Shown here piece by piece: positions 3,986-33,838 of a stretch of DNA of 36,418 bases (its first letter is position 1; the number at the start of each line of letters is the position of its first letter). The stretch lies in the NCBI GenBank assembly GCA_047619425.1, contig JBLHOB010000001.1, positions 1 to 36,418 of the forward strand. The letters run 5' to 3'. The notes beneath the pieces were generated by a model. It was not told the DNA's origin, made no database searches, and saw nothing but the letters and a program-made list of their open reading frames with translations. The DNA is from Myxococcota bacterium. Lineage in GTDB: Bacteria; Myxococcota_A; UBA9160; UBA4427. The position numbers and the translations under genes were made by a program.

Positions 3986-4006
3986 GGTTTGACTCCCCAT
4001 GTCCAA

Positions 4007-5320: not shown

Positions 5321-5794
5321 TTAGAACTCCGAGATCCGCGCCACCAACGCACGTCGGCGTCCGGGCCAATGCTCTTCGAGCAGAGCCACGGCGTCGAGCA
5401 GATCCTGGCTTCGAGAGTCTTCGTGGGGCGCAAGCAAGGGCTTGTTCTCCCCGTCCTTAAGCAGTGTTGCTACGTGATCGCGAATCGAAGCAATATCTCC
5501 GCGCACAACTTCCTCAGGTGCAGTCCCCGCGCGCATCAGCGCAAAGGCACCCGTTTGCGCTGCGTCGGGTGCAGACTTCGGATAGATGCGCAGTTGCCAG
5601 CCTTTGCCTGCATCCGCTGTCAGGTCTGCAGGCGCACCATCTTCGCCAATTCGTGGAACGACGATTTCGCCCAGATCAGGCGGCTCAGCGCCGACGTCTC
5701 CAGCGAGTTGGGTCATGGCGATCAGCATCAGAAAGGCGAGGTCTACGAAAGAGAAGAGCCACGCGGGCGCCCCGCCACCTTGTTCCGCATCCAT
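5321..5794 (-). CDS. ExbD/TolR-family biopolymer transport protein (157 aa, divergent)
   Basis: Short N-terminus, then one TM helix with an embedded Asp (WLFSFVDLAFLMLIAM), as in ExbD/TolR. This is followed by a periplasmic domain of about 100 aa that ends in a pattern like the ExbD C-terminus (KPLLAPHEDSRSQDLLDAVALLEE). Confidence 0.6.
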   Translation of the reverse strand: MDAEQGGGAPAWLFSFVDLAFLMLIAMTQLAGDVGAEPPDLGEIVVPRIGEDGAPADLTADAGKGWQLRIYPKSAPDAAQTGAFALMRAGTAPEEVVRGDIASIRDHVATLLKDGENKPLLAPHEDSRSQDLLDAVALLEEHWPGRRRALVARISEF

Positions 5795-5882
5795 CTTTTA
5801 AAGTCTCCAGCGAGGATGCGGCCAAGGGCCCTGCTACTTCGCGTTGGGGGGTTCTTCGCGGGGCCGAGTCGTAGTGATCAGG

Positions 5883-7427: not shown

Positions 7428-7441
7428 AGTCGGTCTCCGGC

Positions 7442-9616
7442 CTAGTGAACCATGATCGGTGCGCTGGATAGCACCGCCGTACACATGCCCTTGGCGATCG
7501 CGAGTGTTTCCTCGACACCACAAGGAGCAACGCAATTCGTGACGAGGTCGTCGCGCAATACGTCGAGGTCGCTCGTTACTTCCTCCCGCAAGGGCTGATC
7601 GTCGAGTTGTTGCACGCCCAACATGCGCCCCGACAAGCGCTCGGACATCAGGTCGGCAAGGGCCGTGTTGCCATAGGCGGTCGCAACGTCGCTTTCGAAG
7701 AACGATGGGCTTCCCGCCTCGAACTCACTGCCGAACACCGCTTCTCGCTCGGTGGGCAGATCGACGAGTTCGACGCAGTACTCAAAGGCCAGCTTGGTAA
7801 GGCCCACCTGATGGGACGAAACGATCGAGCGAACATCAAATGACGCAGGCAACTGCTGCTTCACTTCTTCGTAGATATCCTGAATGGGATCAATCACGCC
7901 CGGATCGATCGCGCGATCGGCCAGCGGATCGACACCGGTCAACTCAGCCATCGTTGCATTGATGCGGGCAAAATCGCGAAAGCCAGCTTCTGGCGGAAGA
8001 GCGAGGGCGCTTGCGCTGGGCTCGTAGCTGAGCACCGTCGGGTCAATCGGATCTTCAAACAGAGCCAGTTCCTCGAATTCGACCGAGAAGGTGTCGGTCA
8101 GGGGGCTACTCCCCTTCGGTATGACGGAGCAACCTCGTGACACTTGATCTTGTTCTCCCGACAGGGACTGGTCGACATTGACGAACGATTGGCCTGAAGC
8201 CGGAGCTTCAACGCCATCGCCCGGGTTCACAACCACGCGAATGTTCTTGACGCGAATGCCGCCGAGATCGCTTCCGACGAAGGTCGGTTGGCAGAAGAGG
8301 TAGCTGCTCCCGTCGAGTTCGGTGACGGAGAACTCGAGGTTGGTATTCGTTCCCGTCCAGTCTCCGACGTCGAAGGAGAGCACCACCCGCTTACCCACAC
8401 CCGCGAGATAGTTGCGGTGAATCTGGTCCTGGGACAAGGCCTGCTTGTAGATCGCGAGCATGCGAATCTGCCCACGCCAAAAGTTGTTGCTGCCGTTTCG
8501 ATTCGAGCCGACGTAGAGCTCAGCATCGGGGTTCCAGTTCCAAAGTCTCGCCCCACCAATGGGGTCGATGTCGCCGGTGTAGTTCGAGTCGACATAGATT
8601 CGGCGGCCGTAGTGAGAGTCGTAGGTGATGACGACGTGCTGCAGCGTTTCTTGGGCATCTTGGTCGTCGGGGTCCGTGGCCACCTCGATCCGCCCGTCCA
8701 ATTCGCTGCCCGGCGCCATCGACCGGTTCCGCACGCCGTACTGATACTCTTGCTGGTGCAGGGAGACATTGCGATCGCCGCTGCTTCGGCCGTACGTCAA
8801 AATTCGCGCGTTCTCTTGCGTCACGTTTGCGTTGTTGACCCACATCTCAATCGAGTATTGCCCGGTTCCATATCCCGGTTTGGCAATTTTGTCGTAGAGC
8901 TTCTGACCATCGTCATCATCAGATCGCAAGCGCGAGCCGTCCATCACCAGACCGTAAGCGCCCATCCACTCCGCGTTGACGATGTCGAGATCCATGGCGG
9001 GAGACACACCACTTGTATCGTGAGCAATTTCGCCGGTGCCTTCCTTAAAACCGTAAAACGCAATCAGGTTGCCTCTGTATCGCTCGTCATTTTCGATCTC
9101 TTCGCCGTCGACAAAAGCTACTTCGCGACTTTCAATTGAAGCCACCTGAAGCTGTTCACCCGACTCTTCACTGGCTTCGACGATCGCGGCCCACGCTTCA
9201 ACGGCAGTGAGCATTTCGGCGCCGATGGCGACGCACTGGCTTCCACATTGGTGAAAATCTGCGGCGGGCCGGCGAACCACGCGAGACTGCGCGGGGTTGC
9301 TGAGGTTGACCTTGCTTGAGCCGGTGATCACCTGGTAGGCCGTGCCGAGGCTCGAGCTCGCGAAGAGAAAGGGAGCGCCACGCGCACCCGAATCGTGGCA
9401 ACCGTCGCCACAGTACCGAGTCACGACGGGATAGACCGTGGCCTCAAAAGCTTCGGCTTGCGCGGATTGACTCAGCCCCGGAGGCGGTCCGAGGGTCGTG
9501 GTACTCGCCTCTTCTTCCTTTCCGCCATCGTAGCTGCCGCAACCAACCAATAAAGCGATTGTGACAAGCATGCAGCTGGCGTTGAGAAGACGATGTGAGC
9601 TCGCAATGTGCTTCAT
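7442..9616 (-). CDS. LamG/concanavalin-A-like jellyroll domain lipoprotein with an N-terminal cytochrome-c-like segment
   Basis: Start MKHIASSHRLLNASCMLVTIALLVGC (lipobox), 5 nt after the upstream stop. There is a CGDGCH motif at 9395..9412. The central region (LIAFYGFKEGTGEIAHDTSG...QYSIEMWVNNANV...LYVGSNRNGSNNFWRGQIRMLAIY) is typical of LamG-like jellyroll domains. Confidence 0.65.
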   Translation of the reverse strand: MKHIASSHRLLNASCMLVTIALLVGCGSYDGGKEEEASTTTLGPPPGLSQSAQAEAFEATVYPVVTRYCGDGCHDSGARGAPFLFASSSLGTAYQVITGSSKVNLSNPAQSRVVRRPAADFHQCGSQCVAIGAEMLTAVEAWAAIVEASEESGEQLQVASIESREVAFVDGEEIENDERYRGNLIAFYGFKEGTGEIAHDTSGVSPAMDLDIVNAEWMGAYGLVMDGSRLRSDDDDGQKLYDKIAKPGYGTGQYSIEMWVNNANVTQENARILTYGRSSGDRNVSLHQQEYQYGVRNRSMAPGSELDGRIEVATDPDDQDAQETLQHVVITYDSHYGRRIYVDSNYTGDIDPIGGARLWNWNPDAELYVGSNRNGSNNFWRGQIRMLAIYKQALSQDQIHRNYLAGVGKRVVLSFDVGDWTGTNTNLEFSVTELDGSSYLFCQPTFVGSDLGGIRVKNIRVVVNPGDGVEAPASGQSFVNVDQSLSGEQDQVSRGCSVIPKGSSPLTDTFSVEFEELALFEDPIDPTVLSYEPSASALALPPEAGFRDFARINATMAELTGVDPLADRAIDPGVIDPIQDIYEEVKQQLPASFDVRSIVSSHQVGLTKLAFEYCVELVDLPTEREAVFGSEFEAGSPSFFESDVATAYGNTALADLMSERLSGRMLGVQQLDDQPLREEVTSDLDVLRDDLVTNCVAPCGVEETLAIAKGMCTAVLSSAPIMVH

Positions 9617-9621
9617 CACGA

Positions 9622-10812
9622 TTACAAACCCTCCGAGCAATACGCTGCGGTGTCCGCAAACACGTCCATCATGTCGTAGCCGTTGGTTTCAAAATCCTGT
9701 CGAATGTTTTCGACTTCGGTTCGGTCGTCGAGATCCGATGGAGCCCTGAAGCAAACCTGCTCGAACACTTTCTCGACGTGACAACGCGAGAACGCCTCGC
9801 TGTCGACGATTTGCTGACCGAGCGACTGCGCGCCGAAGCCCTGGGTCGCTGCTGTGCGCCAGCCGAGGATCGAATTCGACCCCGAGCGCCAGTAGTTATG
9901 CCACTGGTCATCGACCGTCACGTAACCAAAGGGGAAGGTATTCGCGTTGATGAGATACTTGTCCTGCACATCGCCTCGGGTGTATTCAACGCGGCCCGTG
10001 TCTTCTTCACCAACCCAGTTGAAGTACGCAAAGGCGCCGGCGAGGGGATCCATGCCCGCATGACATCCCGAACAGGAGTCGAGGAAGATCTGGCTATCGC
10101 CGCCCGGGCTTCGCGTAACATCCTGACGAATACGATCATTGGGTACGGCGTTGTCCTGCAGCGCTTCCATGTCGCGGCACAGATGGTTCATCATCGTGAA
10201 GCGGAACATCGCTCGGTTGGTGCCGTCTTTGAAGAATGCCTTGCCGGCTGCTCGCGTCGTCATGACCCCGGCGGCTTCGTCCGCGCGCAGCCAGTTCGGT
10301 GAAAGTTCCGATTGCAACCGTGCCTCAAGCACATTTGAACTCGAAAGGTCCGAGCCGTTCTCTTCAAGCGCCTCGTAGTGAGCATTGCTGCTGAAGGAGT
10401 AGCCGGGCGTTTGAGTGCGGCCGACGTAGATCACGTCACCAGTCAGCACTTCCTTAAACGAACGTCGGTCGCGAATGATGCCGATTACAGTCGCGGTGTA
10501 ATCGTTCAGCGGTGCAAAAATCGTCTGGTCTTCGTTGGTCCAGGGCGTCACGTAATTTTTGAGCACGACGTTGTAGAAGTTCGGGTCCAGCATCGCGAGC
10601 TCTGCTGCGGCCTCAGGGTCACCATCGGTGATGAGCTGTGCCATCTCGCCGAGTGTGAAGTCGTCCGGCGGTACCCCCACGAGCCGGTCGTGCATGCGCT
10701 TGGCTCGTTCAAAGCTTCCTGCCTGTGCGTTGCCGACGAATGCGAAAAAAGCACCAAAGACGAGGGCGAGGCCTGCGCGGTACCACATCCGATTTCCGCA
10801 ACGAACCTTCAT
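9622..10812 (-). CDS. Secreted CxxCH-motif protein, planctomycete PSD/DUF1585-like
   Basis: The ORF is 9622..10860. The likely ATG is at 10812, with GGAG 5 nt upstream. The signal peptide is MKVRCGNRMWYRAGLALVFGAFFAFVGNAQA. CSGCHAGMDPLAGAF (CSGCH at 10060..10074) matches the C-x-x-C-H...DP-x-G signature I associate with DUF1585-type domains. Confidence 0.55.
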   Translation of the reverse strand: MKVRCGNRMWYRAGLALVFGAFFAFVGNAQAGSFERAKRMHDRLVGVPPDDFTLGEMAQLITDGDPEAAAELAMLDPNFYNVVLKNYVTPWTNEDQTIFAPLNDYTATVIGIIRDRRSFKEVLTGDVIYVGRTQTPGYSFSSNAHYEALEENGSDLSSSNVLEARLQSELSPNWLRADEAAGVMTTRAAGKAFFKDGTNRAMFRFTMMNHLCRDMEALQDNAVPNDRIRQDVTRSPGGDSQIFLDSCSGCHAGMDPLAGAFAYFNWVGEEDTGRVEYTRGDVQDKYLINANTFPFGYVTVDDQWHNYWRSGSNSILGWRTAATQGFGAQSLGQQIVDSEAFSRCHVEKVFEQVCFRAPSDLDDRTEVENIRQDFETNGYDMMDVFADTAAYCSEGL

Positions 10813-11070
10813 AGTGACTCCATGTAGCGACCCCGCTCGACAAACCCTCGCCGAGTACAACTCAACAAGTTCCGGTGCATTGTGTAATCGGAACCTCGAT
10901 CCTCTACTCGGTGATCCGAATCACATTCATGGGATCCCAACCGTCCGATTTTCCAAACAGTTCGCCCGATCTGCAGTGAATGCGCATAAGGACGGCAAGT
11001 GGGTGAAAGCCCGGTAAATTTATTGCCGCTCGTGTCGATAACAGGACGGGACTATGAGGATCCTCTCAAC

Positions 11071-13374
11071 ATGATTTCAACGGTCACGCCACGCACCCGA
11101 CTCGTCACAAGCATGTTCGCAATGCTCGTGTGCTTGGCCGTATGCGGCGCGGGGCACGCTGCGACTCCTCAATTGGCACTGCCGGTGGGTGCTTCATTCG
11201 GAGTTGGTGACGAAGCAACACATCTTCGTGCCTTCTTACTCATCAACACCGAAGAGGACTCGCCGCAAATCAACACTGCGGGCATTGGCGTGTTGTTTGA
11301 ACTCGAGGAAGGCTGGCACCTCTACTGGAAGAATCCCGGAGACACGGGCCTTGCTCCCGAGATCGAGATTGACGCAGGGGGTGCAGAGGTTGCGGCGCTC
11401 GAGTGGCCAACACCGTTGCGCTTCGCGACGCCGGGAACTTCGCTCGCAAGCTACGGCTACAGCGACCGTGTGCTTCTGGCCAGCCGCGTTTCAAACTACA
11501 ACCAAACGCGACACGTCACAGTCGATGTCGACCTGCTCCTGTGCAAAGACGAATGTATTCCGTTCACGTTTTCCCTCGAAAGAGAAAGGCCAAATGAAGG
11601 CTCGCGCTCAACAGAGCAACGAGAAAATGAAAGTCAGGTGTTCGGGCAATTCAGAGAGCTTATTCCCAAGCCAGCGGCGGATATTGGTCTCGGTGTCCGC
11701 GCGGAGTTCTCGCCTCCTGAGCTGCAGCCTGGGGACAGCTTCGAAGCAACGCTGACCCTCACCCCGTGCGTGCACGGCCCGGCAGGCTGCACGCCCTTTG
11801 CGCCAACCGGTGCGCAGCCGTTCATCCCCGATCTCAAGACGGACGAAGCAATCGACCTCACGTATCTCGGCTCCTCCCCCAACCCCGCCGATCCAACGGA
11901 GTCATTGCTCCGGTTCCGGGGAGAAGTGGACAACGACGCCGATGGGTTGGCGACTCGTTTCGCAGGCCTACTTTCACTAGAGCGAGCCGCTGGTGATCTC
12001 GTGTCGGTTGTGGTCGATGTTCCGACAACCACACTACAAACCGCGGCAGGGTCACCGTCGGCCATCATCGCTGCTGGATCGACCGCTCCCCAAGCACCGC
12101 TACCCGCCAACAGCGGCACGAGCCTCCTCGGCGTCATCGCGCTGGCACTCCTCGGCGGCTTGATCTTAAACGGCATGCCGTGCGTGCTGCCGATACTCGG
12201 GATCAAAATTTGCTCGGCGGCCGAACTCGCCCAACATGACAAAGCGCAGTTGCGACGACACGGCGCCGCGTATCTGCTCGGTGTCCTGCTATCGATGGCC
12301 GTGCTCGCTTTCGCAGTAATCTTCCTCAAAGCAATTGGCGCAAGCGTCGGCTGGGGCTTTCAGTTTCAAGAGCCGTTGTTTGTCGGCATCGTTGCAGGGG
12401 TTGTCGTGCTCTTTGCCCTCAACTTGTTTGGCGTCTTTGAGATCGGACTCGAGACCTCATCGCTGAGCCAAGTCGGAGCAACCGCCCAGGGCCCCGCACG
12501 AAGCTTCTTTGACGGCTTGCTTGCAGTGGTGCTCGCAACGCCCTGCACTGCCCCCTTCCTCGGCACCGCGGTCGGCTTTGCCTTCGCGGGCGGCAGCGCA
12601 ATGATCATCGCCACCTTCCTCGCAATTGGCGTCGGTCTCGCATCGCCCTATGTCTTGATTTGTCTGATTCCCGGTTGGTCGCGCTTTGTTCCGCGCGCGG
12701 GTAATTGGATGCTTCGCTTACGCGCAGCAATGGGCTTTTTGCTTCTCGCGACGGCTGTGTGGCTCGTATGGGTCTTCGGCCGGAGCACGGGTGCGGACAG
12801 TCAAGCGGCATTGCTCGCCGTACTCGTCGCACTCTCATTTGGAGCGTGGCTATTTGGCTGGGTTCAAAGCCAAGGCCAACCGCGCACAACGTTTTCCGCA
12901 GTCGCCGTACTTTTCGTCTTTGGCATGATCTCATTCAATCGAATCGACGTTGAACCCATCCCCGCGGCAAACGTCGCCCCCAATGCTCGCTGGAAGACCT
13001 ACGACGCAGATGCAATCAAGCAAACCCTCGCAGACGGCTCCCCGGTATTCGTGAGCTTCACTGCTGACTGGTGCATTACGTGCAAAGTAAACGAGAGAGG
13101 CGTCCTTGCAGACGATCGAGTCCTTAACGCGCTCTCGGCCGCGGGCTTCGTAGCCTTTCGCGGCGACTGGACACAACGCGACGAGGCGATCCGCAGAGAA
13201 CTTGCCAAGCACGGCCGAGCCGGCGTACCCCTCTACCTTGTCTACGACCCCCGCACCCCAAACCACCCCGAGGTGCTCCCTGAGCTTTTGAGTGTGAATC
13301 TCGTGCTCAGTTCGCTCGCCGGGGCCTCGCCCGCTGCCCCCGAAAAACCACAAGTTGCGGCTCGCGCCACGTAG
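11071..13374 (+). CDS. dsbD: Protein-disulfide reductase, DsbD family (three-domain)
   Basis: The ATG at 11071 (MISTVTPRTRLVTSMFAMLVCLAVCGAGHA) lies inside ORF 10999..13374. The N-terminal domain has WHLYWKNPGDTG and LLCKDECIPF. The CcdA-like membrane core has the two Cys motifs NGMPCVLPILG and LATPCTAPFLG. The C-terminal thioredoxin domain has FTADWCITCKVNE. Confidence 0.9.
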   Translation: MISTVTPRTRLVTSMFAMLVCLAVCGAGHAATPQLALPVGASFGVGDEATHLRAFLLINTEEDSPQINTAGIGVLFELEEGWHLYWKNPGDTGLAPEIEIDAGGAEVAALEWPTPLRFATPGTSLASYGYSDRVLLASRVSNYNQTRHVTVDVDLLLCKDECIPFTFSLERERPNEGSRSTEQRENESQVFGQFRELIPKPAADIGLGVRAEFSPPELQPGDSFEATLTLTPCVHGPAGCTPFAPTGAQPFIPDLKTDEAIDLTYLGSSPNPADPTESLLRFRGEVDNDADGLATRFAGLLSLERAAGDLVSVVVDVPTTTLQTAAGSPSAIIAAGSTAPQAPLPANSGTSLLGVIALALLGGLILNGMPCVLPILGIKICSAAELAQHDKAQLRRHGAAYLLGVLLSMAVLAFAVIFLKAIGASVGWGFQFQEPLFVGIVAGVVVLFALNLFGVFEIGLETSSLSQVGATAQGPARSFFDGLLAVVLATPCTAPFLGTAVGFAFAGGSAMIIATFLAIGVGLASPYVLICLIPGWSRFVPRAGNWMLRLRAAMGFLLLATAVWLVWVFGRSTGADSQAALLAVLVALSFGAWLFGWVQSQGQPRTTFSAVAVLFVFGMISFNRIDVEPIPAANVAPNARWKTYDADAIKQTLADGSPVFVSFTADWCITCKVNERGVLADDRVLNALSAAGFVAFRGDWTQRDEAIRRELAKHGRAGVPLYLVYDPRTPNHPEVLPELLSVNLVLSSLAGASPAAPEKPQVAARAT

Positions 13375-13511
13375 GAAACTACTCCCGATAAAGCCCTGCC
13401 GAGCGTACAAAACGATGCATTTCGTGATCGCCATCACAATTGGATAAGCGTCGGGCGCCGTAATGGCGAAGAGCAACCTGCAATGGCAGAACTGCCCAGG
13501 AGCTCGATCCA

Positions 13512-14072
13512 ATGCGAAAACCGACATCTTCTCCTTCCCGGACGGGCGCAGCAAAAGCCCGCCTCGCGCGCGGCACAACGGCCCTGCTCGCGGCAACGAC
13601 GTTCATGATCGCCACAATGCTTGTGACAACCCAAGCCAGCGCGATTGAGCCCGGCGAGAAAGCTCCAACCTTCAACGCACGCAAGCTCGACGGCAAAGGC
13701 ACGCTTGGACTCGCGCAGTACCGCGGGAAGGTTGTCTACCTCGACTTCTGGGCCTCGTGGTGCGCGCCTTGTCTCAAGGCCGTCCCCGCCATCGAAACGC
13801 TTCGCGGTGAGTTCCCTGCTTCGAAGTTTCAAATCCTTGCGGTCAACGTCGACAAGAAAACCAAGAAGGCCCTCAAATTCTTGGCCAAGCACGACGTTGG
13901 CTACCCGAGCGTGTCGAACCCCAAGGGCGACATCCCCGGCAAGTTTGATCTCGAGACCATGCCGAGCTCCTACCTAATCGACGCCAACGGTGTTGTGCAG
14001 TACGTGCACAAAGGCTTTCGCGACGGCGACCTCGACATCATTCGCGAACACGTGCGAAAGATCATTAAGTGA
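13512..14072 (+). CDS. TlpA/ResA-like periplasmic thioredoxin (thiol:disulfide oxidoreductase)
   Basis: N-terminal signal/anchor. Motifs VVYLDFWASWCAPCLKAVP (a WCxxC active site) and the AhpC/TSA-redoxin-like LAVNVD...YPSVSNPKG. Confidence 0.85.
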   Translation: MRKPTSSPSRTGAAKARLARGTTALLAATTFMIATMLVTTQASAIEPGEKAPTFNARKLDGKGTLGLAQYRGKVVYLDFWASWCAPCLKAVPAIETLRGEFPASKFQILAVNVDKKTKKALKFLAKHDVGYPSVSNPKGDIPGKFDLETMPSSYLIDANGVVQYVHKGFRDGDLDIIREHVRKIIK

Positions 14073-14296
14073 TCCGGCTGGCACGCACGATCTCGCTTCT
14101 CGGAGTCCTTGCTTTTTGCATCGGCGCAACGGGTTGTGTCGCGGTCAAGCCTTGGGAGAAGGATCTCCTGGCCAAGCCCGGCATGGCGTGGAGTGACGAC
14201 GCGCGCCTCTCAACGATCCAGTCCCATATCGGCTTCAGCAAAGAAGCGTCCCTTCCTGCCGGTGGCGGTGCCGCCGGTGGCTGTGGATGCAACTAG
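14069..14296 (+). CDS. Small lipoprotein, DUF4266-like, with a Gly-rich tail ending in GCGCN
   Basis: The GTG start overlaps the tlpA-like stop (GTGA). The lipobox is IGATGC. The extreme C-terminus PAGGGAAGGCGCN resembles the DUF4266 family as I remember it. Confidence 0.65.
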   Translation: MIRLARTISLLGVLAFCIGATGCVAVKPWEKDLLAKPGMAWSDDARLSTIQSHIGFSKEASLPAGGGAAGGCGCN

Positions 14297-14308
14297 GGCT
14301 GCCGACAG

Positions 14309-15571
14309 ATGATTGACCAACGACCCAAGAATCGACGCGCGCGTCGCCTCGCAAACCGCGGGCGCAAACGCACGATTCTCGCGGCACTCTCGAGTGCTGC
14401 AATCGCACTTCTCTCGGGCCCGCTGTCTTCTACAGCCAACACCCCGATCGAAAAGCCCGCGATCGGCTACTCCTATTCGTATTACAAAGAAGACCCGATC
14501 GCGAAAAGTAAGGTCGCGTTTGGCAGCAAGTCGCGGTACAAGATCAAGACCCACCAAGTGTCGGTCGAGATGCCCATCAACGAGAGAGCCGACATCGGCA
14601 CGGACTTCATCTACGAAAGCATGAGTGGCGCGACACCTTGGTACGTTACGCGCGACGAAAACACCGGCAAACCGCTGCAGGCGATGTCCGGCGCGACGGT
14701 GAGCGAGAAGCGCTTCGACGCGACGCTAAAGAGCAACTACTACTTTGACAGTGCGCGAACGGGCGCTCACGTAGGTGTATCAAAAGAGCGCGACTATCTC
14801 GCCGTTTACGCCGGCGTTAACGGCGAATACTCCCTTAACGAAAAGAACACGACGCTTAGCGGAGGCCTCGGTTTTTCGATCGACAAGATCAAACCCACAG
14901 GAGGCGGAGCCAACGGCCGCATCAACAGTGATGACAAGCAATCCCTGTCGATGAATGCCGGCATTTCCCAGATCATCAACCGACGCTCTACGGTGCAGAC
15001 ATCACTCTCGTACAAGCTCGGCAAGGGTTTTCTCTCTGACCCCTACAAGCGCGCGCTCATCGACCCCGTTTTAGGCATCACTGTGTCAGACAAGCGCCCG
15101 GATGAACGCCATCAGGTCTCGTGGCTCACGCAGTATCGCTATCACTTCGAATCGGCCAACGCGAGCCTGCACGCCGACTACCGCTTTCACTATGACGATT
15201 GGAAGGTCAACTCCCACACCTTCAGCGCCAAGTGGGTTCAAAACTTGCTGAGCGACTACATCCAGATTATCCCGAGCCTGCGCTACTACTCGCAGAGCCA
15301 AGCGTATTTTTACAAGCCGTTCTATTCGTCTCTTCGCAACGACGAGCTAGCCTCAAGTGACTATCGACTTTCCCCCTACGGGAGTCTCACATTGGGAATG
15401 CGAATGCAGTTGCGGATCGAAGACCTGCCGTGGGAATGGGACTGGCGACTCGGTGTCAATTACGAACGACACCTCTCGGATGCCAAGTGGGCGCTTGCCA
15501 AGGTGAGTACCAAGAACCCGGGCCTCGTCGACTACCATTTCGTATACGGCACGTTGGACGTTAGGTTTTAG
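14309..15571 (+). CDS. Predicted outer-membrane beta-barrel protein, DUF3570-like
   Basis: Arg-rich signal region (KNRRARRLANRGRKRTILAALSSAAIALLSG). The body has an alternating aromatic/polar pattern throughout. The C-terminal ...YGTLDVRF ends in an aromatic residue, as in OMPs. There are two MSGAT motifs at 14621..14635 and 14684..14698. Confidence 0.65.
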   Translation: MIDQRPKNRRARRLANRGRKRTILAALSSAAIALLSGPLSSTANTPIEKPAIGYSYSYYKEDPIAKSKVAFGSKSRYKIKTHQVSVEMPINERADIGTDFIYESMSGATPWYVTRDENTGKPLQAMSGATVSEKRFDATLKSNYYFDSARTGAHVGVSKERDYLAVYAGVNGEYSLNEKNTTLSGGLGFSIDKIKPTGGGANGRINSDDKQSLSMNAGISQIINRRSTVQTSLSYKLGKGFLSDPYKRALIDPVLGITVSDKRPDERHQVSWLTQYRYHFESANASLHADYRFHYDDWKVNSHTFSAKWVQNLLSDYIQIIPSLRYYSQSQAYFYKPFYSSLRNDELASSDYRLSPYGSLTLGMRMQLRIEDLPWEWDWRLGVNYERHLSDAKWALAKVSTKNPGLVDYHFVYGTLDVRF

Positions 15572-15575
15572 GCCG

Positions 15576-16517
15576 TTGATACGGCATCACGCCACGCTCG
15601 CTGCTCTCGGTAGTCCGTGCGAGTTCCAATTGTATGGTGAGTCCGAGGACCGACTCGCAGAAGTTTCCGCGGGTGCCGCGGCCGAGCTCGAGAGGATCGA
15701 AACCAAGTACTCCCGCTATCGCGAGGGTAGTCTGTTGAGTGAGATCAATCGCCGCGCAGGCACAGGCCAGTTCGTCTCCCTCGACAACGAAACCATCGGT
15801 CTGCTCAACTATGCGCAAACCGCATTCGATCAAAGCGGTGGTTTGTTCGACATCACTTCGGGCGTGCTGCGTCGCGCATGGGATTTCAACAGCCAAACCC
15901 TGCCCGCCAAGGAGACGCTGCGCGAGTTGTGCGAACTCGTCGGCTGGCAGCACGTAACTCTCACAGAAGGCGCAATTCATCTTTCGCACACCGGGATGGA
16001 AATCGACTTCGGCGGATTCGGCAAGGAATACGCCGCCGACCGCGTCGTTGCGTATTGTCGCGAACAGGGAATTGCCGCGGGCCTCATCGACCTCGGTGGA
16101 GATGTCTGCGTCATTGGTCCACATCCCGACGGACGCCCGTGGCAGATAGGCATTCGCGACCCGCGAAACCCCGAAGCCGCACTCGCCTCGCTTCCCCTGG
16201 GTCGCGGCGCGTTGGCGACCAGTGGCGACTACGAGCGCTTCATGGAAGTCGACGGCAAGCGCTACTGCCACCTGCTCGACCCGCGCACAGGCTGGCCCGT
16301 TGAAAGTCTCTCAGGCGTAAGCGTCGTGGCAGAGCAGTGCCTCGTCGCGGGCACGGCAACCACCGTCGCAATGCTCAAGGGAAAAGGCGGGGCCGCCTGG
16401 CTTCGCAAGCTTGGCTTGCCGCACCTATACATTGACAAGGACGGCCACAGGGGTGGGACGATGTGGCCGAAGCAGCGCTCCGCGAAGACGCCTGCGCCTG
16501 CGCATCGGCAGGTCTAA
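15576..16517 (+). CDS. apbE: FAD:protein FMN transferase (ApbE family)
   Basis: LGSPCEFQLYG...ELERIETKYSRYREGSLLSEINRRAG...FDITSG...GFGKEYAADRV...IDLGGD...ATSGDYERF...YCHLLDPRTGWP are the conserved ApbE blocks. A TTG start lies 5 nt after the upstream stop. The open frame holds no signal peptide. Confidence 0.85.
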   Translation: MIRHHATLAALGSPCEFQLYGESEDRLAEVSAGAAAELERIETKYSRYREGSLLSEINRRAGTGQFVSLDNETIGLLNYAQTAFDQSGGLFDITSGVLRRAWDFNSQTLPAKETLRELCELVGWQHVTLTEGAIHLSHTGMEIDFGGFGKEYAADRVVAYCREQGIAAGLIDLGGDVCVIGPHPDGRPWQIGIRDPRNPEAALASLPLGRGALATSGDYERFMEVDGKRYCHLLDPRTGWPVESLSGVSVVAEQCLVAGTATTVAMLKGKGGAAWLRKLGLPHLYIDKDGHRGGTMWPKQRSAKTPAPAHRQV

Positions 16518-22204: not shown

Positions 22205-22855
22205 GGTGGCTAGTCATACAGAAGCCCTCAGTGGTTGCGGTGTTCGACTCCAACAGCCTGCCTGCTGCAACGGCATGTTAGGCGCGCACTGTTGCACGCC
22301 TGGGAACCGCTAACACAGTCAGCGAGAAGCTTCGAAGGACAAGTGAGGAAGGCTCGAGGACCGGCGTTGACGACGCACTGACGATCCACTGTCCCGCGTT
22401 TTCGGTGAACAAGGAGTCGTTGACGCTCAGGTGAAGAAATTCACTTTAAGAGGCGTACTCAGAGAACTCTGAACCGTCGTTGAACGGATTGCCAAGCCGA
22501 TATCGAGCGCCCTGCGAAACCGGCGGCGCACCGATGCGACCGATGCGAGAGTACCGGTCGAGATCGGAGGCAGCGTAGCGCGCATGGAAAAACTGCTGAA
22601 GTAACAAACCGTTATCCGTACACCGGCCTCCGTGGAAGTATTGCTCTACCCGCACAGAATGCGCTGTGTGAAATTCGCGAGAGCGTTGGCGGGCTCGTCA
22701 CCTCATAGGAGCTGCGTTTGGCTAGGAGTCCCCGAAAGGTTCGCATGATGAAGACACCATTGAGAAGCGCATGACCACGCCGTGGGTGACGCACGGATAA
22801 TGTCGACTAAGCTTTGGGGAAGGCAATTCAACCGCCCTACGAACGGAGCCCCCCA

Positions 22856-23398
22856 ATGCGTCTTAGTAAGCCTCGCGTCGAGCCCTTGAGCGACGAGCAA
22901 CTCCCCCCCGAGCTTCAGGTGAAGATGGGCGGTCGCGTGCTCAACATCTTTCGCACCCTGGCCCACTACCCAAAGCTGATGAAGCGCTGGCTCGTGTTTG
23001 GCAATCATATTCTGGCGAAGTCGACGTTAAGCCCGCGCGACCGCGAGATCGCGATCCTGCGCGTGGGTTGGCGTTGCCAGGCCGGTTACGAATGGGCGCA
23101 ACACGTAGTGATCGGGAAAGACGCCGGGCTCAGCGACGAGGAGATCGAGCGTATCGTTGACGGCCCTGATGCTCCGGGCTGGACCGCTGCAGAGGCAGCA
23201 ATCTTGCGAGGGACTGACGAGCTTCACGACGACTCCTTCGTAACAGACCCGACCTGGGCTGTTCTCACTGAGCACTACAGCACCGAGCAGATCATGGACT
23301 TCGTATTTACCGTCGGCCAATACCACTTGGTCTCGATGGCGTTGAACACCTTCGGCGTGCAACTCGACGAAGGCCTTGAGGGGTTACCGAAACGATGA
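22856..23398 (+). CDS. Carboxymuconolactone decarboxylase (CMD/AhpD-fold) family protein, no CxxC
   Basis: The ATG at 22856 has GGAG 8 nt upstream. LAHYPKLMKRWLVFGNHIL...SPRDREIAILRVGWRCQAGYEWAQHVVIG is the typical CMD-family core. Confidence 0.75.
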   Translation: MRLSKPRVEPLSDEQLPPELQVKMGGRVLNIFRTLAHYPKLMKRWLVFGNHILAKSTLSPRDREIAILRVGWRCQAGYEWAQHVVIGKDAGLSDEEIERIVDGPDAPGWTAAEAAILRGTDELHDDSFVTDPTWAVLTEHYSTEQIMDFVFTVGQYHLVSMALNTFGVQLDEGLEGLPKR

Positions 23399-27398: not shown

Positions 27399-28205
27399 AT
27401 GACGACACCCGAAACCAACGACTCACCGCTGCTCCTCACTCGCGATGGCCGCGTTGCAACCCTCACCCTCAACGATGCACCCATGAATCGCATGAGTCTC
27501 GACTTTATCGACAAGCTTGAGGTCTTGATGCCGGAACTCGACGCGGACCCAACCGTGGGCGCAGTCGTGATCACCGCCGCCGGGGATCAGAACTTTTCGG
27601 TCGGCATGAACCTCAAGCAACTGCCCTCCGGTATCAAGCAGAAGGGAAGTGCCGAAGCTGTGTTCGACCAACGCTTGCGCGTAATCGAGCACATCGAGAC
27701 CATGAGCAAGCCGGTCATCGCCGTGTTGTACGGCTACTGCCTGGGCGGTGGCCTCGAGTTGCCCCTCGGATGTCATTTCAGGCTCGCGGCCGAAGAGGGT
27801 GCCAAGATTGGCCTGCCGGAGATGGACCTCGGGACGGTGCCCGCATGGGGAGGCTCTGCCCGGCTCACCCAACTTGTCGGGCCCGCACATGCCCTCGACA
27901 TGATCTTGCGCGCCAAGAAGGTCAGCGGTCCCGAGGCACTACGCATCGGCCTCGTCAATGAAGTCTGGCCCAACGCGGAGCTTCAACAACGCGCCCAGGC
28001 CCTCGCCCACGAACTCGCCGCGATGCCCGCACTGGCGGTCGCTGAGATTCTACGCGCCATCACGGGTGTCGGGCGCGATGTACTGGCCGCTCGCATTGCA
28101 GCGGAACGCGCCGCCGTGAACGCCACCATGGGCACACAGGATCAACTCGAAGGCATGCGCGCTTTCATGGAAAAGCGTCCGCCTATTTTCAACGCGGACT
28201 CGTAA
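27399..28205 (+). CDS. Enoyl-CoA hydratase/isomerase (crotonase) family protein, second copy
   Basis: VATLTLNDAPMNRM...VVITAAGDQNFSVGMN...KPVIAVLYGYCLGGGLELPLGCHFR...EGMRAFMEKRPP. Confidence 0.85.
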   Translation: MTTPETNDSPLLLTRDGRVATLTLNDAPMNRMSLDFIDKLEVLMPELDADPTVGAVVITAAGDQNFSVGMNLKQLPSGIKQKGSAEAVFDQRLRVIEHIETMSKPVIAVLYGYCLGGGLELPLGCHFRLAAEEGAKIGLPEMDLGTVPAWGGSARLTQLVGPAHALDMILRAKKVSGPEALRIGLVNEVWPNAELQQRAQALAHELAAMPALAVAEILRAITGVGRDVLAARIAAERAAVNATMGTQDQLEGMRAFMEKRPPIFNADS

Positions 28206-28233
28206 CGCCCGCGCACGTTCGAATAAGTTGGCG

Positions 28234-29400
28234 CTAGCGACTGGCGCGCTCTTCGGGCGACAGGTGGTCCATCCCAAGTTCACTGCCGATCCCATAACGC
28301 ATGTCGCGGGTAAAGCCGTCGTCAATAGGGATGCCGGTCGAGTCCGCAATGCGGTCAACGACATTGAACATCGTAATGACCGCCGCAGCCTCGACCACGC
28401 CGTCTTTGCCCAATTGTTGCTCGAGTGCATCGCGTGTCTTCGCAATCGCGCTCGCATCTCGCGCCATCACCGCATCGGTAAACGCTAGAAGCTCAGCGCC
28501 ATGACTCACTCCTGAGTCAACGGTGCCGTCGTTCACTGCAGACAGATCGATCGTCGTACCGGCTATCCCACCGCTCGCACGGAGCAGGCTTGCGTGAGCA
28601 GTCGTTCAGTAAAAACACTCGTTGATCGCCGAGACCCGCGAAGCCACAAGTTCCATTTGCAAACGGTCGATCGCGCGGTCTGGCTCGACATACCCCGGGT
28701 TGCCCACATTCTCAATCGACATGTAGTGCGCCTGGGAGAGCGTGTTGAGCATCATTACTTCTGCGGGCACAAGGCTCAGCGCGCGTCCGATCTGTGGGAC
28801 GAACTCACGACCTTCATAGAGATTCGCGTAGTCTTCGCCACCCTCTTCTCCAGCGGGAATCTGCGGCACCCAGGCTCCATCGAGCCGCGCGCTCACCGGA
28901 CGTTGGCGCGACGGTGAGCCGGCAATTGGCTTAGGCAGCGGAAGAGCCCCGGTGCCAATCGCACGTCCGAATACGTCGAGCGCATTCGCAAGCACCGTGA
29001 CCGAGACGAGTTCGATGTAGTGCTCTTCGTCGAGCGATGTATTTGCGATGACACCTTCGTACCAACTGCGCGCGAGACGTCCGGGGTCGGTAACGATGCG
29101 GTGGATCACGTCGACGATGTCGGCGGCAAGAGTGCCGGGGCCGTCGTGAATTCCGTCGACCGAAAACGGCGAGAGCGCCGCTTTGCGTTCGGCGCAAAGG
29201 CTGCAGTCTCGCGACGCACGCGACTCGGTAGCAATCGCCACACGCTCTTCGCCGGTCCACCAGGTACCGCTCTTGGCAAAGCTCTCGAGCACTTCGTCCT
29301 GAGCAGTAACGATGCCGTCGCGAACCGGATAGTTCGACGCGCTGTAGTCGACTCTGGAAGTTTGGCTTTGTGTCACGGTGTACCTCGAGATTAGGGGCAT
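28234..29400 (-). CDS. AhpD/CMD-fold alkylhydroperoxidase-like protein with an in-frame TGA at 28606..28608. It is either a candidate selenoprotein (CxxU) or a nonsense pseudogene.
   Basis: Track ORFs 28606..29439 and 28234..28536 share one frame and are separated only by this TGA. The read-through gives ...SRVSAINECFY[TGA]TTAHASLLRASGG..., which fits the CMD signature N-x-C-x-Y-C-x-x-x-H with the TGA in place of the second Cys. The likely start is the ATG at 29400 (MPLISRYTV). Confidence 0.6.
28570..28602 (-). promoter_or_regulatory. Stem-loop 3 nt downstream of the in-frame TGA, a candidate bacterial SECIS element
   Basis: The minus strand reads TGA-ACG-ACTGCTCACGC-AAGCCTGCTCC-GTGCGAGCGGT. 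That is an 11-bp stem (8 Watson-Crick pairs, 2 G-U wobbles and 1 A-C mismatch) with an 11-nt apical loop. A G in the loop lies 16 nt after the TGA. Confidence 0.4.
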
Positions 29401-29416
29401 CTGCTTCGTTGTACTT

Positions 29417-29971
29417 CTATTCCACTTTAACCAGCACACGCCGCACCTTTGCGCGCTCTTCGCCGTCGATCCAAACCGTCATCGTTGAAATCATAGTGTC
29501 TAGATCGTCTGCAATCGTACGGCTCTCGTGAATTCTCGCGGCCTTGCCGCTTTTCAGCACGCGCTCGCGAAACATCTCCATGCCGCGGTCGGGGTGCCAA
29601 GTGAAGCGGTCCATCGATTCGTTGCCGAGGGCGTCGGTGGCGGGACGCGAAACGCCGTCTAGCTCAACGGTGCGCGTCACATTCTTGATCGGGTTCTCTT
29701 GAAAGATCCGCAGCCTCGGCTCGCAGCTATCGCACGACGCCGGCTCGACGGTAAGCGTGAGGTAGATCGAGATGACCCCCGACAGCCGCTTCAAAAACCA
29801 AGGAACTTCAAGCGCATCCATTGCGGGGTCGAACGACTCGGATTGATCCCAATCGAGAGCCCAGCGTCCGTTCAAGCGAGTGATGTCCTGGATCTTCCCG
29901 GCTTGCGCCAGCGTGGACGAAAGCACGACGGCAGTGAGCAATGCGGCGGCGATCTTCTGAACAATGGTCAT
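29417..29971 (-). CDS. Secreted protein of unknown function (184 aa, possibly lipocalin-like)
   Basis: Signal peptide MTIVQKIAAALLTAVVLSSTLAQA. It ends 16 nt upstream of the AhpD-like gene start, so the two are probably co-transcribed. Confidence 0.5.
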   Translation of the reverse strand: MTIVQKIAAALLTAVVLSSTLAQAGKIQDITRLNGRWALDWDQSESFDPAMDALEVPWFLKRLSGVISIYLTLTVEPASCDSCEPRLRIFQENPIKNVTRTVELDGVSRPATDALGNESMDRFTWHPDRGMEMFRERVLKSGKAARIHESRTIADDLDTMISTMTVWIDGEERAKVRRVLVKVE

Positions 29972-30184
29972 TTAGACAATCCAGCTCCGCCCAATGCGCG
30001 CAAAGACGCTCTCGGCCGTAAAGTGGTTCGGACGCGCACGTCGAGACAAGTCCGTTAGTGTTTGACCAACGGTAAGAAACCACGCGGAGTGTTTCAACGA
30101 ATTCACTTCGCCTCAATCGAGCGCCGCCCCGGCGCTCTGGCAGCCCATACGTGAGCCTGCACAAGAAAAAGAGAAAGGGTGGCA

Positions 30185-31099
30185 ATGCAAGGCAGCAAGA
30201 TCGCGGTCATCGGGATCGGCGCCATCGGCGGCTCGATCGCGGCCGACCTGGCAGACCTAAAACGACACGAACTCAGCCTTTGCTCAAGGACACCCTTCGA
30301 GTCTCTTGAGGTCACCCACCCGGGTGGTACGTCGATCACCAAAGGCTCGATGATCGACGACCCCAAGAGGGCTCAGCCTGCCGATTGGATCTTGCTCGCA
30401 ACCAAAGCGCATCAGAGCGAAAGTGCCCGGCCCTGGCTAGACGCTTTGTCGCATTCGGCCAGTGTTGTTGTCGTTCTACAAAATGGAGTCGACCACCAAG
30501 CGCGCATCGACCCCCTTGTCGGCAACGGCGTCGAGGTCTTGCCCTGTGTAGTCGGCTTGCCCGCCGAGAAAATAGCTCCCGGTAAGATCAAGCAGATGCA
30601 CAACGGCGGCTTGACGGTTCCAAGCGGCGCGACGGGCGATGCATTTGCAGCCCTGTTTGAAGGGAGCCGCACAAATATTACGGTCAGCGAAGAGTTCATC
30701 ACGCAGGCGTATTGGAAGCTTCTCAACAACGCGGCTCTTGGCGGCGTCTGTGCTTTGGCGCTGCGTGAGAACGGAGTCGCAAGTGATCCCGAGGTACGCG
30801 AGCTCGTCCTCAGTGCCATGGCCGAGGTCATGGCCGTCGGGCGGGCCGAAGGTGCCGACTTGCCGGACGATGCTCCCGAAAGAGCATTGCGACTCATGCT
30901 CAACGCCGTCCCCAACCACTGGTCATCGATCACGGTCGACCGCCGCGAAGGCCGTGCGATCGAATGGGAGGCGCGCAACGCCGTGGTGGGCAAGTTAGGG
31001 AGACGACACGGAATCGCGACACCGATCAATGACGTCTTCACCACGCTCCTGCGCGCCGCAGACGAGCGACTGGGCGACGACTCGCGCGACTGGGACTAA
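30185..31099 (+). CDS. 2-dehydropantoate 2-reductase (PanE/ApbA) family oxidoreductase
   Basis: MQGSKIAVIGIGAIGGSIAADLA is a Rossmann loop. Also ATKAHQ...VVVLQNG and a C-terminal helical domain (YWKLLNNAALGGVCAL). The start is the ATG at 30185 or the GTG at 30179. Confidence 0.7.
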   Translation: MQGSKIAVIGIGAIGGSIAADLADLKRHELSLCSRTPFESLEVTHPGGTSITKGSMIDDPKRAQPADWILLATKAHQSESARPWLDALSHSASVVVVLQNGVDHQARIDPLVGNGVEVLPCVVGLPAEKIAPGKIKQMHNGGLTVPSGATGDAFAALFEGSRTNITVSEEFITQAYWKLLNNAALGGVCALALRENGVASDPEVRELVLSAMAEVMAVGRAEGADLPDDAPERALRLMLNAVPNHWSSITVDRREGRAIEWEARNAVVGKLGRRHGIATPINDVFTTLLRAADERLGDDSRDWD

Positions 31100-32097
31100 C
31101 CGGTTTCGTGCTCGCCACCAGGCTCGCGCCGGGTAAGGCCACTGTAGGCGTCCATCGCGCGGCGCCCTTCATAGATCACGCCGTGTACCTCGCGTGAGAT
31201 CGGCAGGTCCACGTCATACTTCGCGCCCAACTCCATCACCACGCGACTCGTCTTCACACCTTCCGCGACCTGGTTCATGTCCCTGATGATCTCTTCGATC
31301 GACTTGCCGCGCCCGAGTTCTTCTCCCACAAAGCGGTTGCGACTCTGGCGGCTCGCGCAGGTCGCAATGAGGTCGCCAATCCCCGCTAGTCCTGCGAACG
31401 TCGCGGGTTGGCCACCCATCGCGACGCCCAGGCGCGTCAACTCGGCGAGGCCGCGAGTCATAACCGCTGCGCGCGTGTTGTCACCGACGCCGAGGCCATC
31501 GCCCATGCCGACCGCGATCGCGATGACATTTTTGAGTGCACCGGCGATTTCGCAGCCGACAACATCGGTGTTGGTATAGACGCGTAGCAAGCCCGAGTTG
31601 AAGACCGACTGCAATTGCCGCGCAACGTCTGCGTCTTCAAACGCAACAACGCTCGCAGCAGCAAAGCCCGCCATAATTTCCTTGGCCAGGTTCGGCCCGG
31701 TCAAGACGCCCGCGCGGTGCTCCGGGAGCATTTCGTTGATCACTTCGCTCATGCGAAGGTGCGAGTCCTGCTCGAGCCCTTTTGCGAGGCTAACGACCGG
31801 CACCCACGGGCGGATGTATTGGCGCACCTCAGTCAAAACCTCACGCATCCCGAGAGACGGAACACCGAGCACAACCACGTCGGCCTCGCGCACCGCTTCT
31901 TCTAATGAAGCAGTCGCGCGGAGCGCCGGCGCGATCTTGTAACCGGGCAGATATTTGTTGTTCGTGTGCTGTGAATTGATCTCGTCCGCAGTTTCCGCAC
32001 GTCGACACCAGATAATTGTCGGGGCGTTATCCGTCACCAAATGCGCAATCGTCGTACCAAACGAACCCGCGCCGAGCACCGAAACACGAAGCTTCAT
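31096..32097 (-). CDS. gpsA: NAD(P)H-dependent glycerol-3-phosphate dehydrogenase
   Basis: MKLRVSVLGAGSFGTTIAHLV...NNKYLPGYKI...LAKGLE...GPNLAKEI...NVIAIAVGMGDGLGVGDNTRAAVMTRGLAE...EGVKT. This is the GpsA signature throughout. Confidence 0.9.
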   Translation of the reverse strand: MKLRVSVLGAGSFGTTIAHLVTDNAPTIIWCRRAETADEINSQHTNNKYLPGYKIAPALRATASLEEAVREADVVVLGVPSLGMREVLTEVRQYIRPWVPVVSLAKGLEQDSHLRMSEVINEMLPEHRAGVLTGPNLAKEIMAGFAAASVVAFEDADVARQLQSVFNSGLLRVYTNTDVVGCEIAGALKNVIAIAVGMGDGLGVGDNTRAAVMTRGLAELTRLGVAMGGQPATFAGLAGIGDLIATCASRQSRNRFVGEELGRGKSIEEIIRDMNQVAEGVKTSRVVMELGAKYDVDLPISREVHGVIYEGRRAMDAYSGLTRREPGGEHETG

Positions 32098-32353
32098 CGA
32101 CTACCTCTTTATACTATCAGGCGGACTGCAACCGCTCGCGAGGAGCACCCCGCCGACACACCGAGCCCACATCGGACCCGGCAGAACGAAACATGATTAT
32201 GCAACGAGCGATTCGAATCTCCAAGGCGGCAATCCCCGACGCCTTTCGTCCATTTCGAGTCGCCGCTGTTGGTCGCAGTGCCTAGACTCGCGCCTCGCAC
32301 CTTCCCACCACTGGAGCCCAACGAACCGTGTCATCTCCCGATCGCAAGCTGTC

Positions 32354-33838
32354 GTGACTGCGACTGCTCTCCCCAAGCCCGAACGAGAAGAACAGCTGCT
32401 TCGCCTGCAACGCATGGAGGGCAAGCTGATCAAGGGCCTATTCGAACATCCAGGTGTTGTCAGTCGACGTTGCGAAAACCAACTTCGCTACGCGCTCGGC
32501 CTCGCATCGCTCGAAGTCTTCCAACCCGGCGCAGCCAAAAAGGGTGGCCGCAACAACCGGCCGGACGTGGTTGTGCGCTCGCCAGGGCTTGCGGGGTGGC
32601 GCAAACGTGTGCTTTCCAATTTGGGCGGAATCTTGACCGGCACCCGCGACAGCCGCAAGCGCGTCGAACTTGCGTGGCAAATCTTCGAGCCCATGCTTCC
32701 GGCGCTCGAGAAGACCCGAAGCGAAGTCATCGAAAAGTACGTCGACCACTTCAGCGCTCGAGAGCTGGACCAAGAGATCGGGATCAAGACCCTCGTCACG
32801 GTTGCGGGGGGAGGCGGTGGCTCGGGCTACGTCTACATGGGCGCCTGGGAGGTGTTGCAGAACGCGGGCCTGGTGCCCGGCTACGTCATCGGGGCGTCGA
32901 TCGGCTCGGTGCTCGGCTTGTTTCGTGCGCGACGCCGCAACGCCGACTTCAACGAGTACTTGGCACTCGCCAAAAGTATGAAACGCGAAGACATTTTTCG
33001 TTATGTCAGCATCAAAAACCGCTACGGACTGCCGGGGATCATGCGCCTGTACTTGCACGCGAGCATTGGCAGTGCATTCACCACCGAAGACAAGCGAGAG
33101 ATGCTGCTCTCCGATCTCGAGATTCCTTTCGAAGCCGTCGTCGCGGGTGTGCGACGCAATTCAGTTGGCGACAACGCGGCCAAGTACGCCCGCAACCATC
33201 ACTTGCCCCAAGACAAGCGACCGAGCCCTCTAGAACTGAAGGCGCAGATCGCCTCGCAGTTGGTGCGACTCGTTGGTTTCATCAACCCGCGCGCTGTACA
33301 AGAGATTGTGATTGGCGCGGACAAACTCACCGAGCACTTCAACGCCGTCGACGCTGCGGGGTTCTCAGCCGCCATCCCCGGGATCTTGCACTACGACGTG
33401 ACACGCAAAGACCCGCACATGAACGGCATCCTAAAAGAGCTGATGGAGCGCGAAGACGTGCTTGCCCTCGTTGACGGAGGTGTTGCGAACAACGTCCCCT
33501 CGCGCACCGCGTGGCAACAGGTTCAAGCGGGCAAAATCGGCACCCGTAATACCTACATCCTCGCGTTCGATTGCTTTCACCCGCAGATGAGTCTGGGACA
33601 TTTCTGGATGCAGCCCATCACGCGAGTCGTGGCCTACCAAGTTGCACTCAACCAGCGATACGCCCGCAAGCGCATTGAGTTCCGACCCACACTGTCTCCG
33701 ATGAATTTGCTTCCGCCCGCAAACGAGCTCGATCAGGCGGTCGGTTGGGGCAGGCAGCAGATGTCACAATCGCTGCCCGAAATTCAAAAGTTCTTTGAAC
33801 CCGTACGTTGGGTGGCACCGAACACCTCGAAGCCGTAA
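32354..33838 (+). CDS. Patatin-like phospholipase
   Basis: Oxyanion loop AGGGGGSGYVYMG, GxSxG nucleophile GASIGS and catalytic Asp in LVDGGVANNVP. The track ORF starts at 31955 but that overlaps gpsA. The plausible starts are the GTG at 32354 or the ATG at 32414. Confidence 0.85.
   Translation: MTATALPKPEREEQLLRLQRMEGKLIKGLFEHPGVVSRRCENQLRYALGLASLEVFQPGAAKKGGRNNRPDVVVRSPGLAGWRKRVLSNLGGILTGTRDSRKRVELAWQIFEPMLPALEKTRSEVIEKYVDHFSARELDQEIGIKTLVTVAGGGGGSGYVYMGAWEVLQNAGLVPGYVIGASIGSVLGLFRARRRNADFNEYLALAKSMKREDIFRYVSIKNRYGLPGIMRLYLHASIGSAFTTEDKREMLLSDLEIPFEAVVAGVRRNSVGDNAAKYARNHHLPQDKRPSPLELKAQIASQLVRLVGFINPRAVQEIVIGADKLTEHFNAVDAAGFSAAIPGILHYDVTRKDPHMNGILKELMEREDVLALVDGGVANNVPSRTAWQQVQAGKIGTRNTYILAFDCFHPQMSLGHFWMQPITRVVAYQVALNQRYARKRIEFRPTLSPMNLLPPANELDQAVGWGRQQMSQSLPEIQKFFEPVRWVAPNTSKP

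Follow-up and report, generated by a model that had tools for sequence, protein, structure and literature searches.

We analysed a 36,418-nucleotide stretch of DNA from a bacterium of the Myxococcota (the window: contig JBLHOB010000001.1, assembly GCA_047619425.1), in which two minus-strand open reading frames (ORFs), 28606..29439 and 28234..28536, lie one behind the other. We consider it highly probable that they are the two parts of one gene, encoding an all-helical redox protein with two domains and about 380 residues, which belongs to the family NF041238 and in which an internal TGA specifies selenocysteine (Sec). The predicted recoding of this UGA to Sec is supported by comparative evidence at the level of the family.

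The ORF 28606..29439 ends in ...LVASRVSAINECFY, followed by the TGA at 28608..28606 (window translation). Beyond this codon the frame reads TTAHASLLRASGGIAGTT..., or TTAHASLLRASGGIAGTTIDLSAVNDGT... in a longer excerpt, and is open down to the next stop, the TAG at 28236..28234. The ORF 28234..28536 is the tail of the same frame, counted from an internal GTG at 28536 that lies 69 nucleotides (23 codons) beyond the TGA. Between GTG 29376 (or ATG 29400) and the TAG, the only interruption is the TGA directly after ...NECFY; the motif at 28617..28594 reads NECFY-TGA-TTAH, i.e. C-F-Y-U-T with U being the in-frame TGA. The translation thus bears out the first-pass annotation of this DNA, which had placed the two ORFs in one frame with a 69-nucleotide gap and no other stop. 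Its proposal of a single protein of about 388 residues stood as regards the single gene; the length of 388 residues, including Sec, is obtained only from ATG 29400. The likely start of the selenoprotein gene is GTG 29376, the start chosen by the gene callers (P0001, L084), which has a GAGG 6 nucleotides upstream and gives a product of 380 residues, the N-terminal piece of which is P0001 (256 residues). GTG 29439, further upstream, is an unlikely start and overlaps the preceding gene. Residues are numbered here from ATG 29400, which makes the Sec residue 265 (257 from GTG 29376).

A protein search gave 529 relatives, of which the best 120 were inspected, and a scan of species-representative genomes gave a relative in 527 genomes, of which the best 80 loci were compared. 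Almost all of the inspected protein matches (115/120) are gene calls of ∼250 residues that are cut exactly after ...N-x-CFY. Three full-length Cys forms (P0043, P0047 and P0078) read CFYCT, with the Cys aligned to the TGA of the window gene, and their similarity to the window frame runs to the C-terminus, including the motifs HGA..L..F and R.AD.TGIP. Both of the alignments that the first-pass annotation had anticipated were therefore seen: the TGA falls on the second catalytic Cys (of CFYC), and homology continues past it.

At the DNA level, a TGA occupies this codon in all 83 gene copies found in the best 80 of the 527 genomes together with the window, and neither TAA, TAG nor a Cys codon occurs at the site in any of the 83. 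The residues before the TGA are CF[YF] in 81 copies (81/81) and CVY in the other 2. The hosts include Myxococcota, Binatia, Thermodesulfobacteriota, Gamma- and Alphaproteobacteria, Spirochaetales, Thermoanaerobaculia, Limisphaerales and Limnocylindria, among others. The CFF-TGA variants are found in a Binatia metagenome-assembled genome (MAG) and a gammaproteobacterial MAG (L019, L020) and the CVY-TGA variants in two alphaproteobacterial MAGs (L062, L069); all of these CFFU and CVYU variants retain the TGA and T-x-x-H. Two loci, L024 (6735, 7971) and L057 (5212, 6356), each carry two tandem CFYU paralogs, each paralog with a TGA and a hairpin of its own.

The frame after the TGA is open for 116–166 codons in every locus. 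Over the 123 downstream codons of the window gene, amino acid identity to its nearest relatives (L001, L039 and L002) is 72–76%, with a ratio of nonsynonymous to synonymous substitution rates (dN/dS) of 0.09–0.14. This low ratio indicates purifying selection, and the segment after the TGA is therefore translated. Homologs that end at the TGA, or a loss of conservation beyond it, would have pointed the other way; neither was seen. A contig from a Joint Genome Institute (JGI) metagenome (L084) is 99.72% identical to the window over 4.6 kb (27754..32377; 12 mismatches and 1 gap) and carries the same TGA with the same flanks.

Elsewhere in the window, TGA is the ordinary terminator of 5 of the 20 Pfam-supported genes. 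Recoding is therefore specific to this site and the genetic code is unchanged, which rules out a genome-wide reassignment of TGA. The window contains 24 mechanical pairs of ORFs joined across an in-frame TGA, among which only the CFYU gene has a redox motif or homology. Stop usage among 21 supported window genes was TAG 11, TGA 5 and TAA 5, a small sample with ends taken from mechanical ORFs. In genomes with 59% G+C, TAG seldom ranks first among the stops.

For profile searches of the joined protein, Cys was written at the TGA position. Its best fit is the alkylhydroperoxidase-related (seleno)protein family AhpD_rel_CFYUT, NCBIfam NF041238, with 431.8 bits against a cutoff of 175 (E=2.1e-129), well outside what chance would give, and the alignment runs end to end (protein residues 26–380 on profile positions 1–355 of 357). 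It shares with this family the CFYU-T motif, the length of ∼360–380 residues and the two-domain layout, and we detected no difference from it. Pfam PF02627 (CMD) passes its gathering threshold (25.9 versus 23) over the CMD core only, residues 241–277, and TIGR00778 (AhpD core domain) is also above its cutoff (28.7 versus 27.8). The nearest relatives are Myxococcota, the closest species representatives being L001 (66% identity) and L002 (63%).

AhpD-like selenoproteins with a CxxU motif were described in 2005 in the Sargasso Sea metagenome, where 27 sequences were found (PMC1088965), and the 2008 analysis of the Global Ocean Sampling (GOS) data lists the selenoprotein families ‘AhpD-like 1’ and ‘AhpD-like 2’ (PMC2398784), in agreement with the first-pass statement that AhpD-like families have Sec-containing members in marine bacteria. 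The window protein shares with these marine proteins the AhpD/CMD-type domain, a Sec in the second position of CxxU and a bacterial Sec insertion sequence (SECIS), here a candidate, just downstream. The marine families were defined by single-domain matches to COG2128 or pfam02627, and may or may not include the two-domain CFYUT family. In the GOS data, Cys homologs of the AhpD-like families are more numerous than the Sec forms (PMC2398784), whereas Cys forms are absent among the 83 CFYUT copies examined.

The residues around the TGA have the arrangement of an AhpD active site. The spacing of Glu250, Cys262, Tyr264, Sec265 and His269 is that of the AhpD proton relay, Glu-x11-Cys-x-x-Cys-x3-His, with Sec in place of the second Cys. 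E250, C262, F263 and Y264 are invariant in alignment A2, and His269 is conserved in every locus recovered by pattern search. The corresponding relay is Glu118/Cys130/His132/Cys133/His137 in Mycobacterium tuberculosis AhpD and Glu36/Cys48/Tyr50/Cys51/His55 in Pseudomonas aeruginosa PA0269 (PMC3141380). The window protein has a Tyr at the place of His132, as does PA0269. It shares the proton-relay pattern with M. tuberculosis AhpD (TIGR00777; 1knc, 1gu9) but is not an ortholog (19.7 bits against a TIGR00777 cutoff of 191.95); the structural match is weak, and there is no ahpC adjacent to the window gene.

A sequence search of the PDB aligned residues 238–361 with 6k40 (E=8e-8), and also with 2oyo, 3c1l and 2pfx, with the C-x-Y-C of these proteins on CFYU. 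The fold was modelled with AlphaFold (AF2) on the Cys homolog P0047, which is 47% identical to the window protein. The model is all-helical (predicted local distance difference test, pLDDT, 86.5; predicted template modelling score, pTM, 0.88), and about half of it superposes on 6k40, 2prr and 2oyo with target-normalised template modelling (TM) scores of 0.68–0.76. Judged from this model, the C-terminal half is an all-helical AhpD-like fold. In the AhpD-like structures (Deinococcus radiodurans 6k40, 2oyo, 3c1l, 2pfx and 2prr; TIGR01926) the shared sequence and fold cover the C-terminal 120–190 residues of the window protein, with CxYC-xxx-H in register. The solved proteins are single-domain and all-Cys, of ∼190 residues, whereas the window protein has in addition a conserved N-terminal domain of ∼200 residues with a CxxC of its own, and the Sec. 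The window also holds a second, unrelated gene of the CMD/AhpD superfamily at 22814-23398 on the plus strand (194 residues, PF02627 E=9e-12), which has neither a CxxC nor an in-frame TGA.

The first-pass annotation had advised a search for a SECIS just downstream of the TGA, and a conserved hairpin was found there. We aligned 79 distinct sequences, without gaps, from 9 nucleotides before to 57 nucleotides after the TGA. RNAalifold predicted one hairpin, with columns 31–36 paired to columns 42–47 around a 5-nucleotide loop. The 6-bp stem begins 18 nucleotides after the UGA and the loop 24 nucleotides after it, over the codons L-L-R-A-S-G. Standard pairs occupy 94.7% of the cells, as against 25–56% when the partners are slid by 1–3 columns. 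Covariation is seen in the outer two pairs, where C-G is replaced by A-U in 8 sequences and by G-C in 2, and U-A by C-G in 2. In the inner GCUC/GAGC pairs, four synonymous third-codon positions are invariant in 78–79 of the 79 sequences, whereas third positions elsewhere vary freely. In the loop, the G at position 2 is invariant and the G at position 4 is present in 78/79; the apical loop has GU in 59/79 and GG in 20/79. A small, G-containing apical loop has been described for bacterial SECIS elements (PMC1088965). Conserved as it is across phyla, the hairpin fits a bacterial SECIS, to judge from the aligned sequences.

Compared with the SECIS of the Escherichia coli fdhF type, the hairpin is likewise placed within the coding sequence shortly after the UGA and has a small apical loop with a G, and in the window it can also be folded with a bulged U; the conserved stem, at 6 bp with 4 of them invariant, is shorter. 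Of the Cys forms, L081 retains the hairpin and L082 and L083 have it broken; its loss in two of three agrees with a constraint on the RNA that depends on the UGA, although this comparison has three sequences only. When the window sequence is folded singly (28560-28608, minus strand), the minimum free energy structure pairs the 3′ arm, GAGCGGU, with an upstream CUGCUCA at 28602-28596. This longer-range pairing was ruled out, as it has no RNAalifold support in the 79 sequences and is not conserved in the family.

Components of Sec decoding adjoin the gene in relatives of the window. In two alphaproteobacterial MAGs (L052 and L057), ARAGORN places a tRNA-SeC immediately upstream of the CFYU gene, and the layouts of both loci are given in the table with the features of the window gene. 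In L057, a CMD-family gene (3711-4331) lies on the opposite strand between selB and the tRNA-SeC.

Table. Coordinates of the proposed selenoprotein gene, its elements and two related loci. Window positions are used unless a locus is named.
Feature	Position	Strand	Basis or content
Complete selenoprotein gene (proposed)	28234..29376	-	Translation, NF041238 match and gene-caller start; one Sec
In-frame UGA, predicted to be read as Sec	28606..28608	-	Aligns with the Cys of CFYCT; second position of the CFYU redox motif
123 codons downstream of the UGA	28237..28605	-	Rest of the AhpD-like domain; HGA..L..F and R.AD.TGIP motifs
AhpD-type active-site helix-turn-helix	28594..28653	-	Glu250, Cys262, Tyr264, Sec265, His269
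Active-site codons	Glu250 28653..28651; Cys262 28617..28615; His269 28596..28594	-	
Second, all-Cys CxxC motif, C66-S-L-C69	29194..29205	-	Invariant columns in alignments A1 and A2
Candidate SECIS hairpin	28571..28587	-	CUGCUC 28587..28582, loop CGUGC 28581..28577, GAGCGG 28576..28571
Locus L052	80-2040		End of selB; tRNA-SeC 853-948; CFYU gene from 958
Locus L057	18-6750		selA 18-1310; selB to 3241; tRNA-SeC 4379-4474; CFYU gene from 4514 (two tandem paralogs)

Several results weigh against reading the gene as an AhpD-like selenoprotein with a SECIS. No tRNA, tRNA-Sec included, was found in the 36-kb window, and searches of 29 ORFs with Pfam and of the window with tblastn found neither selA nor selB nor selD. 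The hairpin is short and is not the minimum free energy structure of the window sequence on its own, the folding stability of which is indistinguishable from that of shuffled sequences (z=0.14, −0.46 and −0.53). Part of its conservation is at the protein level, because it overlaps the conserved LLRxS codons, and one of the three Cys forms that serve as its control retains it. Rfam gave no match to the whole window at gathering thresholds or to the 121 nucleotides around the TGA at E≤10; there appears to be no Rfam model that covers the CFYU hairpin. The cutoffs of the true AhpD model TIGR00777 (19.7 versus 191.95) and of TIGR01926 (peroxidase-related enzyme; 37.2 versus 81.8) are not reached. 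Given these sub-cutoff scores and the match to NF041238, the protein is therefore a member of the curated CFYUT family, and a relative of classical AhpD rather than a member of it. Our literature search found no biochemically characterised member of NF041238, so that what is said here of its substrate, of its partner and of what the N-terminal CxxC does is a matter of inference.

Four other explanations have to be set against a single Sec-containing gene, and even taken together they are improbable. The first-pass annotation had named a pseudogene as its alternative, i.e. a recent TGY-to-TGA nonsense mutation in a Cys-type AhpD-related gene with the downstream frame decaying. Rare Cys forms of the family do exist and the window has no Sec machinery, both of which count in its favour, but the TGA is present in 83/83 copies from many phyla and in a second strain (L084), the 123 downstream codons are intact with a dN/dS of ∼0.1, and NF041238 is curated as a selenoprotein family. 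The pseudogene is rejected on the conserved TGA and the downstream dN/dS, and we give it very little weight. Gene callers annotate almost every record as if there were two real genes, one for a 256-residue protein that the TGA terminates and another for a 100-residue protein with its start at GTG 28536. Such a split would halve the CxxC/H active site, however, and the conserved T-x-x-H and LLR lie in the 23 codons that separate the TGA from GTG 28536; the Cys forms are single polypeptides, and neither TAA nor TAG ever takes the place of the TGA. Two genes are as improbable as the pseudogene, and the first-pass view of one protein with a CFYU redox centre is upheld by the full-length match to NF041238, the invariant TGA and the selection acting downstream of it.

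The remaining two explanations accept a single frame. The UGA could be read through as an amino acid other than Sec (e.g. Cys, Trp or Gly) by near-cognate or reassigned decoding, and Sec insertion is indeed predicted here from comparison, with no machinery within the window. The termination of window genes by TGA shows, however, that the codon is not reassigned; the SECIS-like hairpin is conserved, and selB and tRNA-Sec adjoin the gene in relatives, as does selA in one of them. Read-through of this kind is no more probable than the two preceding explanations. An error of sequencing or assembly, which the first-pass annotation had listed among the things that would undo its proposal, is the least likely of the four. 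Nothing specific speaks for it; the TGA is common to all homolog copies, and its presence with identical flanks in the independent JGI contig, which differs from the window at 12 mismatches and 1 gap over 4.6 kb, excludes a one-off error.

On the preferred reading, that of a single selenoprotein gene, a ribosome reaching the UGA at 28608..28606 would not be released by release factor 2; SelB carrying Sec-tRNA(Sec) would bind the hairpin 18 nucleotides downstream and deliver Sec in place of termination. In the AhpD of M. tuberculosis the nucleophile is the second Cys, and the first Cys is the resolving residue. For the chemistry and the partner we infer, by analogy with AhpD, that Sec265 would make the nucleophilic attack on an oxidised partner, be it a peroxiredoxin-type protein, a disulfide or a hydroperoxide, and that Cys262 would resolve the intermediate as a selenenylsulfide. 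The invariant C66 and C69 of the N-terminal domain are a candidate second redox or metal centre, which could recycle the Sec centre.

The N-terminal domain of ∼200 residues has no Pfam or NCBIfam family match of its own. Beside C66 and C69, the residues H85 and H100 are likewise invariant across the family, and this CxxC/His set may be a second redox centre or a zinc/metal site. Comparison of the N- and C-terminal halves with hhalign gave a weak match that places CSLC on CFYU (P=8e-4, probability 24%), which hints at a possible ancient internal duplication of the two halves. A tentative extension, which we think rather doubtful, is that the family is an internally duplicated, two-centre AhpD-like enzyme without a separate partner, in which the N-terminal CxxC (with H85 and H100) relays electrons to the CxxU or binds metal beside it. 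If this were true, Sec would be close to obligatory, since Cys is found in 0/83 of the closest copies, and the SECIS hairpin, tied to the LLRxS codons, would for that reason be fixed in no fewer than 8 phyla. The chemistry of the family may differ from the peroxiredoxin recycling of the AhpD type.

No conserved gene neighbour, including linkage to ahpC, was found across 84 loci, where only antisense-ORF artefacts and scattered short-chain dehydrogenase/reductase (SDR) and enoyl-CoA hydratase (ECH) neighbours were seen. Gene context therefore gives no lead to a function or a partner. In the window, the flanking genes encode an enoyl-CoA hydratase and a 184-residue protein of no known family. 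The latter, directly upstream (29417-29971, minus strand), has no Pfam or NCBIfam match; the near-identical contig L084 has it too, and it is not conserved beside other members of the NF041238 family. Further away, positions 10999-16517 (plus strand) hold an envelope redox cluster of a DsbD-like thiol:disulfide transporter (791 residues), a ResA/TlpA-like thioredoxin-fold protein (186 residues), a DUF3570 protein (420 residues) and an ApbE flavin transferase (313 residues). Seven co-directional ORFs at 1387-10860 (minus strand; 182, 688, 437, 157, 550, 732 and 412 residues) are essentially without family assignment, except for a Laminin_G_3 domain in the 732-residue protein, and a MotA/ExbB-like gene (769-1383) lies downstream of them on the same strand.

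As a new member of a selenoprotein family already known, the window gene is unremarkable, and the finding, although correct, is an ordinary one: the CFYUT family, its motif and the replacement of a catalytic Cys by Sec in AhpD-like proteins were already documented, and no new question is opened. Its value lies in annotation. The gene is split into a 256-residue ‘hypothetical protein’ and a 100-residue ORF in nearly every public record (115/120 best matches), where the true product would be a selenoprotein of ∼380 residues, and recognizing this corrects a systematic mis-annotation. It also marks the source organism as a probable user of selenocysteine and extends a widespread, uncharacterised redox family by one member.

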